From positions 42,522-106,521 of the forward strand of contig LFSI01000084.1 in NCBI GenBank assembly GCA_001512545.1: a DNA stretch of 64,000 bases, written 5' to 3'. Below the pieces are notes generated by a model. It saw nothing but the letters and a program-made list of their open reading frames with translations, was not told where the DNA came from and searched no databases. Positions 48,075 to 52,471 of this stretch are shown here, piece by piece (position 1 is the stretch's first letter; each line of letters begins with the position of its first letter). Source of the DNA: Clostridia bacterium DTU065. Lineage in GTDB: Bacteria; Bacillota; DTU065. Made by a program: the position numbers and the translations under genes.

Positions 48075-50102
48075 TCACTGCTGAAACTTCCCAGGAAATA
48101 ATTTTGCAAGTGCGGCTCTGATCTCGGCCTCTGAGTTAATCCTCTCGCTGCAGGTTCCCCCCTTGCAAAGATAGAGGGCAAGCTCGCCTGCAGGTTTCCC
48201 CGCTTCAATGCCAAACTCAGGACAGGTGCCATCTGCAAACCAGAACAGAATGCCTGCAAGATAGTTCTGTTGGATTTCGGATCTGATCTGGGCCAAAAAC
48301 CCTGCGTCCTTCTCTCCTCCTGTTAGCACCACTTCCCAGCTTTCGCCCAGGTACCAGCTCGTAACAAGAACCAGAAGCGGTGCACCTTCAGGGTCGCTTT
48401 TGAGCACTCCTGCAAGGCCGCGCAGGGTCTGCTCCAACCTTCTCCGCAGTTCGAGGTCGCCGGTCACCTGAAAGAGCCTAAACAGCACTAAGGACATCAC
48501 CGAGTTGCCCTGGGGAATAGCTCCGTCGAACACCTCTTTTGGCCGTGTGGGAAGGATTGTATCTGCGGCGATCTTGTAGTAACCTCCTGCTTCTTCGTCG
48601 TAAAAGAGCCGGTTGGCTCTATTCACCAGGTTCAGCGCAATCTCCAACGCCTCTTTCCTTTCCCTACCCTCTTTCATGACACCGTACTCAAAAAAGCCCC
48701 AAGCAAGATAAGCATAGTCGTCGAGGTGACCTTTGGATATAACCTTGCCCCCTATCAACGCTCCCGGAAGTTCTTCCGAAGCGGCAATCCCTCGAAGGTA
48801 GCGATACAGAGCATCTGCAGCGTTCTGGATCCTTTCATCAAGAAAAGCAGCCTTGGCCAATCCTGCAAGGAGTAAACCGTTGGCAAACACGAGAATCTTT
48901 TTGTCGGTGAAAGGAGCGGTTCTGGTTTTCCCGCGGTACCTTTTCAGCTTACTTTGGATCTGTTCGAGCTCTTCCCGGTCCTTCCCTGATACAAGGTCCC
49001 AAAAAGCTTTTGAGCTTTTTGGGAAAAGATGGATTTTTCCCTCGAAGTTTCCATCTGCAGAGATTTCGTAGTACTTGGCCAGAAGACGAAGCTCGGCTGG
49101 AGTGAGAACCTCTTCTAGTTCTCCGACGGTGTAAAGATAGAAAGCTCCTTCCTTAGTCCCTGCGTCTTGAGCTGTAAAATATCCTCCATCTTCTCCTTTG
49201 AGATTGGCCTCTAAGTACTCAAAAACTTGAATGGCCTTGTGTTTAAAGTATCGGTCCTTGGTAAAGCGGTAGAACTCTCCCAGAGTATAGAGTAAAAAGG
49301 CGTTGTCGTAGAGCATCTTTTCGAAGTGAGGAACTTTGAACTGGGCATCAGTAGAGTATCTGAACATACCCCCTCCCACTTGATCGAAAGTGCCCTTGCC
49401 AAGAAGGCTCTTTAGGGTGTGCATGGCGATGTGCAGCGTTTTGTGATCGCTGCTGTCTGCGGCAGCATCCAGAAGCAAAAGAAGATTCTGCAGTTGAGGA
49501 AACTTTGGTGCAGGCAAAAACCCTCCGTGCTCAGGATCGTACTCTTCCTTCAGGTTTTCCACAGCCTTCAACGCAGCCTCTACCACGAACTCTCCCAAAG
49601 CACCTCCAGCCTCCGGTAAGTTTTCAATGCTCCGCTGTGCAGCTTCATCAATAATACTCCGGTCGTTCTCCCAGAACTCGACGATTTTTTGGAGCACATC
49701 GATCAGGCCAATCCGGCGCAATGTAGCCTTTTTCGGGAAGTAAGTCCCCGCATAAAACGGCAGCAGGTCCGGAGTGAGAAACACCGTCAGCGGCCATCCT
49801 CCCATACCAGTAGTTCTTACGCAGTAGTCCATGTACACAGCATCTACGTCTGGGTGCTGCTCTCGATCTACTTTAACAGCTACGAAATGCTCGTTGAGGA
49901 TCTCTGCCACTTCCTCATCTTGGAAGGACTCGTCGTTCATAACGTGGCACCAGTGGCACGTGGAGTAGCCGATGGAAAGAAATATTGGACGGTCCAGCGC
50001 TTTAGCCCGTGCAAAGGCCTCCTCGCCCCACGGATACCAGTCTATGGGGTTTTCTCCGTGGAGCTGCAGGTACGGTGAAGGTTCGCGTTTTAGCCGATTC
50101 AT
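48075..50102 (-). CDS. Thioredoxin-domain protein of the DUF255/YyaL family (N-terminal Trx fold plus six-hairpin glycosidase-like domain)
   Basis: [55 protein letters not shown] is the classic DUF255 start, including CHWC. 675 aa. Confidence 0.8.
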
Positions 50103-50423
50103 AGCTATCCCCCATCTGTTTTGACATCTCTTATGGTGTAATTATAAGATACCCAACTGCACAGTTTCCATGGCTCTGTTTTGGAGAAAAGGGGCGAAGT
50201 ACATACACACTGCAAGCGATCCCCACCGCTCTCTTAGAATGCCTGCAATCTCAAACTCCGAGTCTCCGCATGTCCGGATAACACAGACTAAAAAAGAGCA
50301 CGTTTGCAACACTAAGCACCACTGGTGATTTGTAAGGGTCATTACTACTCCATATCTCGAGGCTGGAATTTACCTTCCAACTAACTAAACCCTTCGGAAA
50401 GTTAATTCCGAACAAACTTTCCC

Positions 50424-50452
50424 TTGTATTGCCTATGATTTCCTGGCATAAT
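50424..50452 (+). promoter_or_regulatory. Sigma-A-type promoter (TTGTAT-n17-CATAAT) driving the leader, attenuator and 97-aa gene
   Basis: Hexamers at 50424-50429 and 50447-50452 are separated by 17 bp. Confidence 0.4.
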
Positions 50453-50509
50453 GATTGTAACACCAACAATATCGATCTTCCCGCTAAAAAAATGAGAGGA
50501 GGTGCGCCA

Positions 50510-50602
50510 ATGCTGAGGGAATCGGTTTCACTAAACTTTTTCGGCTATCGTTGTGACTACATGCCAAATAAGGTCTTGGCGTTGGCTCGCATCTTTACGT
50601 AG
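50510..50602 (+). CDS. Putative 30-aa leader peptide (MLRESVSLNFFGYRCDYMPNKVLALARIFT)
   Basis: Strong SD GAGAGGAGGTG at 50494-50504, 5 nt before the ATG. The ORF ends inside the 5' arm of the antiterminator. Confidence 0.35.
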   Translation: MLRESVSLNFFGYRCDYMPNKVLALARIFT

Positions 50603-50663
50603 AGCATCTTTTTGCATGCACTGAATTGAGCCAACGCTCTGGAAAGGGGACGTTGGTTTTTTT
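50578..50663 (+). promoter_or_regulatory. Attenuator: mutually exclusive antiterminator (50578-50588 pairs with 50628-50638) and terminator (50631-50663) hairpins
   Basis: GGCGTTGGCTC can pair with GAGCCAACGCt. The 3' arm of that pairing is the 5' arm of the CCAACGCTC-TGGAAAGG-GGACGTTGG-T7 terminator. The downstream SD (AAAGGGGA) lies inside the terminator, and the T-run abuts the ATG at 50664. Confidence 0.45.
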
Positions 50664-50957
50664 ATGTACACCAATGCAGAAGAGATACTCCCTCGCGATC
50701 TGATCGAGCAGATTCAGCAGTACATTCAGGGACAAGAAATCTACATTCCCAAATGCGACGAAAAGAAGCTGGGCTGGGGTGAAAGAAACGGTGCCAAGGC
50801 GCTGATTCGGGAACGCAACCGAACCATCTGCAGGAAATATGAATGCGGAGCTTCCATCGACGAGCTGATGGCTGAGTTCCATCTGAGCTACGACAGCATC
50901 CGCAAGATCGTTAGGGGAAGCAGGAAAAAACAACTCAGAAGCAAGAAAGGCATCTAA
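50664..50957 (+). CDS. Small putative transcriptional regulator (Mor / CD3324-like family, tentative)
   Basis: 97 aa. ILPRDLIEQIQQYIQGQEIYIPK...RNRTICRKYECGASIDELMAEFHLSYDSIRKIV resembles the small Mor-like activator pattern as I recall it. Confidence 0.45.
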   Translation: MYTNAEEILPRDLIEQIQQYIQGQEIYIPKCDEKKLGWGERNGAKALIRERNRTICRKYECGASIDELMAEFHLSYDSIRKIVRGSRKKQLRSKKGI

Positions 50958-51124
50958 CTTCGATGCCTTTTTTTATATAATCAAATCGGGAACCGGCCAA
51001 ATCATCCCAATAAGGGAGGTGGTTGAATTGATCAACCAGAGGTGGCTGAGAGTCTAACTCTCGGTGACAAACCGGCAGACCTGGCATGGAGGTCTGCCGG
51101 CTTTTTTTGCCCCTTTTAAATATG

Positions 51125-52471
51125 TCATTGGGAGATCTCCGAACCTGCTTCGAGATTTTTAACCTGAAGTTTGATGTCGTCAACTTCCTTTTTGCCAAGA
51201 GGATACAACAGGAAAACAAGGAACGAACAGGCCAACGCAATCACCGGAACTACAACCAACGCGATTTTCAAACCGGTTATAGCAGATGGCACCTGCTGCA
51301 GGCTGTCTGCCACATACCCCGATCGGTCGAGAATGTAGCCAAGGAGAGGTCCTTGCAGGGAGATGCCAAGGCGGATGATCAGGGCATTCATGCCGTAGTA
51401 CATACCTTCTCTTCTCTTTTTGGTCTTGAGATAATCCAGATCAATCACATCGGCAATGAGGACGTCGATAAGGATCATCAAGCCGGCAAGCCCAATGCCG
51501 TTAGTTGCAGCAATTAGCAGTCCGTGAACAAAGCTTTTGGCAAAAAAGTAGGGAACGAGGCTCAAGGCAAAGATCACGATGCAGACGAGAACGGTCCACT
51601 TTGCACCTTTCTTGGTGGAGATCCTGCTCCAGCCAAAGACAAAAAACAGGGAACTGATGAAAACCGTTCCGAGGATTAACGTCTGCTGGAGACCTTCGGA
51701 TCCGAGTACGTATTTAACATAAAATGGCAGTACCGCTTGCATAAAGACAAAGGTGAACTGCAGGAAAAACGAAGCAAGAACGTAGAGCACGAACGCTTTG
51801 TTCTTGAAAGTCTCCTGTAAAGACTCCCTCAGCGGCAGAGCAGGTGCAGGCTCTGCGTCTTGAGTCTGCAAAGACTCGATGCCTAAAACGCTGAGCCAGA
51901 TAAAAATCCCCGCAACAACTGCAAAGATGATGCCGGTGAGAGACCAGCCCATAAGCGCTGCAAGAAGAGGAGGCGCAGCATACCCCACGATGTTACCAAC
52001 GATCCCAAAGACCTGACGCTTTGCGGACACGCTGTTACGTTCGCTACTTGTTCTAAACGCCTCGGGATACAAAGCGGTGTAGTTCAAAAATACGAGCGTA
52101 TAGAGACCGTCGAACAGGAACAGCGCAAGAATGAAGTAGATCGAAAGAATCAGAGTGCTTCCGCCAAAAGAACTAGTCCCCGGTAGCCACAAGAGGGCAA
52201 ATGCTACTATAAAAGGCAGAATCCCATACTTTACGAAAGGAACTCTAGTTTGATGCTTGCTCTTGTAGATGTCCGAAACCTGCCCTAGAAGCGGATCATT
52301 TATGGCATTGTAGATTCCGTAAAACAGCATCACCTGTCCAACAAAGATCGGAGACAACTTCAGGTAGTCGATGTAGAAAAAGTTAATAAAACCGGAAAAC
52401 GTCGCCATCACCAGTGCACTTGCAAGCTGTCCGGCACTGTAAAGCCATTCAGCACGACTTTTAACAGCCAT
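51125..52471 (-). CDS. MFS transporter, glycoside-pentoside-hexuronide (GPH):cation symporter family
   Basis: 448 aa with 12 TM helices. The N-terminal FFYIDYLKLSPIFVGQVMLFYGIYNAINDPLLGQVSD block is GPH-like. Confidence 0.8.
   Translation of the reverse strand: MAVKSRAEWLYSAGQLASALVMATFSGFINFFYIDYLKLSPIFVGQVMLFYGIYNAINDPLLGQVSDIYKSKHQTRVPFVKYGILPFIVAFALLWLPGTSSFGGSTLILSIYFILALFLFDGLYTLVFLNYTALYPEAFRTSSERNSVSAKRQVFGIVGNIVGYAAPPLLAALMGWSLTGIIFAVVAGIFIWLSVLGIESLQTQDAEPAPALPLRESLQETFKNKAFVLYVLASFFLQFTFVFMQAVLPFYVKYVLGSEGLQQTLILGTVFISSLFFVFGWSRISTKKGAKWTVLVCIVIFALSLVPYFFAKSFVHGLLIAATNGIGLAGLMILIDVLIADVIDLDYLKTKKRREGMYYGMNALIIRLGISLQGPLLGYILDRSGYVADSLQQVPSAITGLKIALVVVPVIALACSFLVFLLYPLGKKEVDDIKLQVKNLEAGSEISQ

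Follow-up and report, generated by a model that had tools for sequence, protein, structure and literature searches.

A conserved and putatively ribosome-read leader switch upstream of a Mor/CD3324-family regulator gene in uncultured Bacillota

Leaders whose output depends on a ribosome are well known for amino-acid operons and for resistance genes. In trp-type attenuators, the leader folds through alternative pairings of its segments, 1:2, 2:3 and 3:4, whereas translational attenuation of the ermC/cat type needs a conserved arrest peptide together with the drug, the stalled ribosome sitting on segment 1 within the leader open reading frame (ORF). To our knowledge, few ribosome-dependent leaders are known on transcription factors, whiB7 being the paradigm. 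The 5′ leader described here lies in a 64,000-nucleotide (nt) stretch of the genome of Clostridia bacterium DTU065 (assembly GCA_001512545.1, contig LFSI01000084.1, positions 42,522 to 106,521 of the forward strand), hereafter the window, to which all coordinates refer. It precedes a gene for a 97-amino-acid helix-turn-helix (HTH) protein of the Mor/CD3324 family. With slightly better than even confidence, we read the region from 50396 to 50666 as the promoter and 5′ leader of a monocistronic Mor/CD3324-type regulator gene, and the leader as a four-segment, three-state switch read by ribosomes. The device appears to work like a leader-peptide attenuator, yet it lacks regulatory codons, an arrest peptide and a conserved terminator, and its segment 1 is the ribosome-binding site (RBS) of the leader ORF itself.

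Two described systems are closest in spirit. In actinobacteria, the stress-responsive transcription factor gene whiB7 is subject to attenuation mediated by an upstream ORF (uORF) and to positive autoregulation (PMC10274678). The uORF peptide varies between species in both length and sequence, and the whiB7 product activates its own promoter (PMC10274678). In Sinorhizobium meliloti, the uORF leader of duf1127-1 has been proposed to sense ribosome availability and translation efficiency (PMC12218461). Nothing relevant came up in full-text searches of the literature on CD3324, its locus tags, PF08765 and Mor-family leaders, and the switch considered here is apparently undescribed.

All parts of the leader lie on the + strand. 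Segment 1 (50491-50517) comprises the leader Shine-Dalgarno (SD) sequence, a spacer, the ATG and codons 2-3, and forms the 5′ arm of helix 1:2. The SD itself, GAGAGGAGGTG, occupies 50494-50504, with its GGAGG (50498-50502) 7 nt before the ATG at 50510. The leader ORF (50510-50602), read directly and also present in the ORF list, consists of 30 codons and a TAG stop (50600-50602), and encodes the peptide MLRESVSLNFFGYRCDYMPNKVLALARIFT. Segment 2 (50574-50601) resides in the 3′ end of this ORF and has either segment 1 or segment 3 as its partner; it includes the stretch GCGTTGGC, and its core, GGCGTTGGCTC, spans 50578-50588, with the stop codon 11 nt beyond. Segment 3 (50627-50643, UGAGCCAACGCUCUGGA) contains the complement of that core, GAGCCAACGCTC, at 50628-50639, and pairs either with segment 2, as an anti-sequestrator or antiterminator, or with segment 4. 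Segment 4 (50646-50663), the 3′ arm of hairpin 3:4, is made up of the main-gene SD GGGGA (50646-50650), ACGUUGG and U7 (50657-50663); in the DNA, GGGGACGTTGG at 50646-50656 is followed by T7 at 50657-50663 and by the ATG at 50664.

Upstream of these segments is a promoter (50424-50452, + strand) with a -35 box TTGTAT (50424-29), a 17-nt spacer and an extended -10 element TGgCATAAT (50444-52), in which the TG at 50444-45 precedes CATAAT (50447-50452). A CTTG(C/T)..-17/18-TAtaaT promoter pattern keeps its position across homologous loci. A consensus promoter and terminator scanner flagged neither this promoter nor the 3:4 hairpin, because the -35 box matches at 3 of 6 positions and the 3:4 stem is bulged with a nominal loop of 14 nt; both elements are nevertheless positionally conserved in ~35 homologous loci. 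The original prediction, drawn from the window sequence, had already described the TTGTAT-17-CATAAT promoter and the strongly initiated 30-codon ORF with its peptide and stop, all of which can be read at the locus. Nearly all that it described is also conserved. Its coordinates contained small slips: the leader ATG is at 50510, and the U-tract, placed one nucleotide before the ATG of the regulated gene, directly abuts it, with zero nt between.

A protein search and a scan of one genome per species gave 71 loci, and about a dozen more came from retrieving the closest proteins and scanning metagenomes; the single-protein metagenome scan added only 3, of which 2 are identical to the window. The comparison group used below consists of ~38 homologous loci from uncultured Bacillota, many of them labelled Limnochordia. 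A common layout is found in all of them: promoter, strong SD, leader ORF of 21-50 codons, segments 2 and 3, a loop and segment 4. The leader SD and its ATG or GTG start fall at a single aligned position, and segment 4 carries the main SD and ends 2-7 nt before the ATG of a conserved MY.NAE protein start. A covariance model termed R1, covering 108 positions from segment 2 to the ATG, was searched over 479 kilobases (kb) and gave exactly one strong match per Limnochordia-type locus (38-40 loci), each ending at the ATG of the homologue; in the 64-kb window it gives one match, at 50574-50666 (54.9 bits). It has no match in Clostridium-type loci. Rfam at the gathering threshold returns nothing in the window or in 17 homologous loci, and for the region at E <= 10 only chance-level hits. 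Two loci with a Bacillota-type leader and gene, L005 and L018, come from metagenome-assembled genomes labelled Patescibacteria and Bacteroidota, and their contigs are probably mis-binned.

The predicted energetics of the window leader already point to competing structures. The 3:4 hairpin has a folding energy of -15.8 kcal/mol (z = -4.33; none of 200 shuffles did as well), and the 2:3 pairing (50572-50645) reaches -26.8 kcal/mol (z = -3.0, 1 of 200 shuffles as good). When segment 1 is omitted, the minimum-energy fold of 50572-50666 is 2:3 and not 3:4. The whole 215-nt leader is not unusually stable as a single fold (z = -0.53), and in that fold the 50578 arm pairs with ~50491-50517, which is to say with the leader SD, the ATG and the first codons. 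As a duplex, this helix 1:2 (~50491-50517 with 50574-50601) has an energy of -27.9 kcal/mol (z = -4.2). These values refer to 37 C, and the growth temperature of the uncultured organism may differ. In the original prediction, an antiterminator and a terminator were the two alternative structures; both correspond to real pairings, 2:3 and 3:4, but the scheme was incomplete, having overlooked helix 1:2, which turns the leader into a four-segment, three-state device.

Compensatory changes across the homologous loci argue for each of the three helices. In alignment A3, 85% of the cells of helix 3:4 are paired (29-49% when the arms are slid), 10 of its 14 pairs have changed on both sides, and there are 39 double-change cells. 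The model-based alignment A6 gives similar figures for the same helix (83% paired, 27-51% when slid; 8 of 14 pairs; 41 double-change cells), although it leans towards the modelled helix, and the alignments in general are partly hand-registered. Helix 2:3 is paired in 86% of cells in alignment A2 (22-47% when slid), with 7 of 11 pairs changed on both sides and 23 double-change cells. The covariation of helix 1:2 was not significant in that first register (A2, 77% paired) and was resolved by a dedicated alignment, A7, in which 80% of cells are paired (40-53% when slid), 7 of 15 pairs have changed on both sides and 23 cells carry double changes. In A3, A6, A2 for 2:3 and A7 alike, 0 of 500 shuffles reached the observed number of double-change cells, a figure that is not a probability since these controls ignore phylogeny.

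Replacements between clades seem more telling than the shuffles. The majority pairing GCGUUGGCC:GGCCAACGC is exchanged in a third clade (L005, L018, L081 and L083) for GGAGACGCG:CGCGUCUCC in the same places, and helix 1:2 occurs as GGUGCG/CGCAUC in the window and as GUGUGAGC/GCUCACAC, GGUGGGCC/GGCCUGCC or GGUAGGCC/GGCCUACC elsewhere. In a register-free energy test, the pairing is stronger than in shuffled sequences in 26 (1:2), 30 (2:3) and 25 (3:4) of 36 loci. G-U pairs outnumber A-C mismatches by 38:13 in helix 3:4 and by 59:12 in helix 1:2, and the spacing between inverted arms ranges from ~12 to 30 nt; this excess and the variable spacing favor an RNA of the + strand over palindromic operators in the DNA. 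The strong conservation of GCCAACG is expected, because one segment must complement two others. At the level of sequence, then, the comparison establishes four segments, the mutual exclusivity of 1:2, 2:3 and 3:4, their conservation and a maintained ORF. Conservation in relatives was the check proposed for the original prediction, and the alternative pairings and the ORF are indeed conserved, with compensatory changes that bear out the mutually exclusive 2:3 and 3:4 helices.

The leader ORF is maintained although its product is not. Between the conserved start and the 3′ boundary of segment 2, the SD-preceded frame is free of stop codons in 36 of 36 loci, as compared with 1 and 16 of 36 for the other frames. 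When the unalignable middles of the ORFs are shuffled, the mean chance of staying open is 0.42, which gives a joint chance of ~1e-15 over all loci and of ~1e-7 over one representative of each of 17 independent clusters. The distance from segment 2 to the leader stop is 0-33 nt in every locus. Conservation does not extend to the peptide, whose middle is unalignable and whose length ranges from 21 to 50 residues. Segment 2 is read as ..LALA(R/H).. in the window clade, as ..SVGLP.. in the majority and as ..ETRGP.. in the third clade, in two phases, and the conserved peptide ends can therefore be attributed to constraints on the RNA. Maintenance of the ORF supports a translated leader that would act through the position of the ribosome.

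Several more specific roles for the peptide were considered. No amino-acid enrichment or run is found in the leader peptides of the loci (Ile, Leu and Val each make up ~9-10%), in agreement with the absence of a run previously remarked on for the window, and amino-acid-specific attenuation is ruled out by the lack of any enriched residue. Peptide-specific stalling of the erm/cat type, which had been suggested in its place, is unlikely, given the unalignable middle and the two reading phases of segment 2. A toxin-like leader peptide is ruled out as well, the peptide being unconserved and often hydrophilic.

The conserved output of the switch is likely to be access to the main SD. In the window, the SD GGGG(A) (50646-50650) pairs with CUCU (50637-50640), and across the loci the 3:4 stem reaches into the main SD through covarying CCUC:GAGG or CCC:GGG pairs across a bulged A, so that the burial of this SD, as originally proposed, is upheld. 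Of 38 loci, only 3 have at least 6 consecutive T's ahead of the ATG (7 in the window and L001, 6 in L077); where the T-run is at most 4, most of the few T's are base-paired with A's at the foot of the 3:4 stem. Since the U-run is restricted to the closest relatives of the window, SD sequestration is taken to be the conserved output, and termination by 3:4 and U7 is probably an extra specific to the window's lineage. The proposal that control acts on both transcription and translation is thus plausible for that lineage and does not extend to the group. In one near-identical contig (L072, Logan ERR3662323), T5 stands before the ATG in place of the T7 of the window, which reflects either homopolymer-length variation in the putative U-tract or an assembly error; the protein of that contig has a different C-terminus (P0001, 104 amino acids). 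Other hairpins are seen in the leaders of some relatives. A terminator-like hairpin with a T-rich tail lies around the leader stop in 11 of them (L007, L008, L012, L016, L023, L024, L029, L030, L032, L035 and L078), and L006 and L010 have a canonical terminator, CCCACCGG..CCGGTGGG-T6, just before segment 3. These may provide an additional point of transcriptional attenuation; neither the leader-stop hairpin nor the terminator before segment 3 is present in the window.

From these features, we lean, if not strongly, toward a switch of the trp/whiB7 kind that would be read by ribosomes on the leader ORF. If no ribosome is present, helix 1:2 would form and leave segment 3 to pair with segment 4, burying the main SD in an OFF state, in which the hairpin and U7 of the window lineage would probably terminate transcription too. 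Fast translation would likewise result in OFF: a ribosome at the stop codon would mask segment 2, so that 3:4 could form. Conversely, a ribosome detained at the start or within the first codons during synthesis of segment 3 by RNA polymerase would occupy segment 1 and free segment 2. Helix 2:3 would then form first, segment 4 and the SD would stay open, and the regulator would be made. As the leader ORF has neither codon runs nor a conserved peptide, it would sense general translation status, such as slow or stalled ribosomes or ribosome availability, rather than a particular amino acid or a single drug-peptide combination. Autoregulation may be added by a conserved dyad adjoining the -35 box.

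Folding with ribosome footprints gives partial agreement with this scheme. Prefixes representing the nascent transcript were folded because equilibrium folding of the full-length RNA left the main SD closed, its mean unpaired probability being 0.34-0.38 in all conditions. In the nascent window transcript extending to segment 3, the predicted probabilities of 1:2 and 2:3 are 0.84 and 0.02 when no ribosome is present; with a ribosome on the leader start, 2:3 has a probability of 0.78, and with a ribosome at the stop both helices are at ~0. When the ribosome is placed on the start, the mean probability of 2:3 over the nascent transcripts of 33 loci is 0.72.

A number of observations weigh against the ribosome-read switch as just described. 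In the nascent transcripts of many relatives, 2:3 is favored over 1:2 even without a ribosome (median 0.63). In most loci, the full-length RNA retains 3:4 in its equilibrium fold, whatever the ribosome position; owing to this return to 3:4, the ON state must be kinetic and co-transcriptional, as in classical attenuators. The U-tract is not conserved, the T-run being 4 or shorter in the other 35 of the 38 loci. The main SD lies unusually far from its ATG, at 14 nt in the window and 12-14 nt in relatives, and the RBS of the regulated gene would therefore be poorly spaced even when unmasked. RNAalifold predicted no pairs on the full 366-column MAFFT alignment, because that alignment is too gappy, and to this can be added the blindness of the shuffle controls to phylogeny noted above. 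None of the three helices accounts for a conserved motif, TTTGYCATG (in the window, CTTTTTGCATGC at 50607-50622), located between the leader stop and segment 3. Finally, we infer both that the leader is translated and which way the switch operates.

The direction is also what separates the proposed switch from an alternative that retains all of its parts and reverses its logic. In this arrangement, translation of the leader would melt 1:2, segment 2 would capture segment 3 between ribosome passes and the gene would be ON, whereas an untranslated mRNA would be locked OFF with both SDs hidden; expression would thus track ribosome availability positively. In its favor, helix 1:2 hides the leader's own RBS, and the geometry of the majority clade somewhat favors this logic: with 11-17 nt between segment 2 and the stop codon there, a ribosome in termination would cover just the 3′ half of segment 2 and leave GCGUUGGCC free, and 2:3 persists with a ribosome at the stop in several relatives (0.60 in L023, 0.77 in L024). 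The terminator-like hairpins around the leader stop in 11 relatives would, moreover, be melted by a terminating ribosome. In the window and its clade, however, no more than 11 nt separate the core of segment 2 from the stop and a ribosome at that stop abolishes 2:3 (P = 0.0), and the four-segment attenuators that have been studied experimentally, trp and whiB7, run the other way (PMC10274678). On balance we consider the reversed polarity unlikely, though a serious contender. Selection between 2:3 and 3:4 by a ligand or a trans-acting factor, as in a riboswitch or the target of a protein or small RNA, seems improbable. In its favor, the three helices leave the TTTGYCATG motif unaccounted for, and GGA-containing SD motifs are located in or beside hairpin loops. 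Yet the helices, SDs and start codons explain nearly all conserved positions, a conserved multi-helix junction or pocket is absent, Rfam offers no real match even at E <= 10, and the ORF, SD and start are conserved in the face of an unconserved peptide.

Two further explanations dispense with the regulatory role of the ORF. The GCCAACG/CGTTGGC repeats could be half-sites of a DNA operator for an HTH protein, perhaps the 97-amino-acid protein itself, the small ORF being incidental. The regulated gene does encode a DNA-binding protein, the motif is strongly conserved in distant relatives, and palindromic operators can also seem to covary. Against this stand the inconstant spacing of the inverted arms and the tolerance of G-U far above A-C, which is a strand-specific signature of RNA, as well as the survival of three-way complementarity through complete sequence replacement in clade C. 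The arms always embrace both SDs, the ORF is maintained in all 36 loci, and the sites are 130-230 nt downstream of the promoter. Taken together, these points make an operator very improbable. It is scarcely credible, in turn, that the leader ORF encodes a functional small protein (a membrane peptide or a toxin) that is co-expressed with the regulator and whose translation the structures only tune. A basic N-terminus and abundant Val, Ile and Phe are seen in some of the leader peptides, but the hydrophobic runs are too short for a membrane span, several versions are hydrophilic, and no protein family matches the peptide, which, at 21 to 50 residues, cannot be aligned and in which the phase of segment 2 differs between clades.

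As a ribosome-read switch, the leader can be set beside the described systems. With trp-type attenuators it shares four segments and three mutually exclusive helices, a 1:2 helix that would mean OFF without translation, and a leader stop placed for a terminating ribosome to mask segment 2. It differs from them in having no regulatory codon runs, in a segment 1 composed of the leader SD and start rather than the sensed codons, and in a segment 2 that lies in the ORF; in addition, 3:4 buries an SD, with a convincing terminator only in the window's near relatives, and the gene regulated is itself a regulator, not a biosynthetic operon. As in ermC/cat leaders, the main SD is enclosed in a hairpin, a segment further upstream can capture the 5′ arm of that hairpin, the position of a ribosome on a short leader ORF would pick the fold, and purely translational control is possible. 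Here, in contrast, the peptide is unconserved, the reading phase over the conserved RNA varies by clade, and the downstream gene is not a resistance determinant.

The resemblance to whiB7 is that of a small transcription-factor gene behind a long leader with a short, variable uORF, the quality of whose translation selects among alternative RNA structures (PMC10274678). It extends in part to autoregulation: whereas WhiB7 activates its own promoter (PMC10274678), the present loci have a conserved dyad at the -35 box, which is a candidate operator only. The conserved output of whiB7 is a Rho-independent terminator and its uORF is Ala-rich; here, the output would be SD sequestration, no residue is enriched, the U-tract is lineage-specific and the leader's own RBS serves as a switching segment. 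The protein families (WhiB as opposed to Mor/CD3324 HTH), the RNA sequences and the phyla are all unrelated. In duf1127-1, too, the RBS of the uORF pairs with uORF codons when no ribosome is bound, and the leader controls a small gene of unclear function (PMC12218461). That system is Rho-dependent, however, with an attenuation element at codons 3-10 (PMC12218461), while in the leader described here the partner of the RBS is the final stretch of ORF codons, and an SD hairpin further downstream provides the output; the two leaders are unrelated in sequence.

The regulated gene (50664-50957, + strand) encodes a Mor/CD3324-family HTH protein, an assignment made originally without database searches and now confirmed by scores above both curated cut-offs: 35.9 bits for Pfam Mor (PF08765, cut-off 24.9) and 108.2 bits for NCBIfam CD3324_fam (NF040785, cut-off 65). 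The sequence link to the solved structure of Mu Mor (1rr7) is weak (E = 0.7). An alternative in-frame start upstream of 50664 was rejected: in the window, the TTG within ACGTTGG is not in frame with the gene, and homologues share the MY.NAE N-terminus. A hairpin read in the sequence as AAAGGCATC-N7-GATGCCTTT followed by T's (50946-50974, + strand) overlaps the gene's stop codon; it is likely a terminator and would make the unit monocistronic. The scanner lists this hairpin on the minus strand, and a sub-threshold Rfam match covers only its terminator-like stem.

Adjoining the -35 box is the dyad GGAAAG-N15-CTTTCC with a central TTCCGAA (50396-50422, on neither strand in particular; full dyad GGAAAGTTAATTCCGAACAAACTTTCC). 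It is the sole match within the 64-kb window and is found at the same position relative to the -35 box in ~30 homologous loci, a placement that makes it a candidate operator, through which the Mor-like protein might regulate its own gene. In many homologous loci the dyad overlaps the stop codon of an upstream chemoreceptor gene (MCP-like C-terminus). The closest relatives (L073, L079 and L080) keep the gene order of the window (48075-52471), in which the Mor-like gene is flanked by a divergent DUF255/thioredoxin-like gene and a convergent MFS transporter gene. No phage-like genes were seen near the Mor-like gene in these four stretches, and the Mor-family gene of the window can therefore be regarded as chromosomal and outside any prophage. 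A promoter-like site for the divergent DUF255/thioredoxin-like gene is present at 50170-50141 on the minus strand. In the third-clade locus L083 (1080-1910), an AgrB-family gene lies directly 3′ of the CD3324-like gene, which may point to a connection with peptide quorum sensing.

A counterpart is found in other members of the family. CD3324 homologues of Clostridium and Lachnospiraceae (L037-L068 and L071) are preceded by an unrelated conserved leader, located ~100-210 nt upstream of the homologue's ATG, with the alternative pairings CTCTATGCAACACAG / TGCATAGAG / TGTGTTGCACTC / SD GGAGTG. Of 31 loci, 29 contain a short, SD-preceded ORF that extends into the first of the switching segments. 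Unlike in the group of the window, its peptide is conserved, as either MLEYLLxIKKSNQSPKxLYAAQ.. or MKNKxGFLLYAGLVI. Rfam has no match for this leader. That an unrelated leader also contains an ORF suggests leader-ORF control as a trait of the whole family. Tentatively, and with rather less assurance than we attach to the switch in the window, leader-ORF switches may occur family-wide in CD3324/Mor-like regulators of Bacillota, in at least two unrelated RNA designs: a three-helix GCGUUGGCC/GGCCAACGC form (Limnochordia-like) and a CUCUAUGCAACACAG/UGCAUAGAG/UGUGUUGCACUC form (Clostridium and Lachnospiraceae). Together they would make up an undescribed stress circuit leading from translation status to a transcription factor.

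An uncharacterised yet widespread family of small HTH proteins thus has a leader switch that is conserved, shows covariation and maintains an ORF. If confirmed, the switch would constitute a new RNA family for annotation of the Rfam type and would exemplify attenuators that use the ribosome-binding site of the leader itself as a switching segment. It would also provide the testable hypothesis that regulators of the CD3324 family respond to translation stress or ribosome availability. If the family-wide circuit is real, it would be the Firmicute counterpart of actinobacterial whiB7, with possible positive autoregulation via the -35 dyad.

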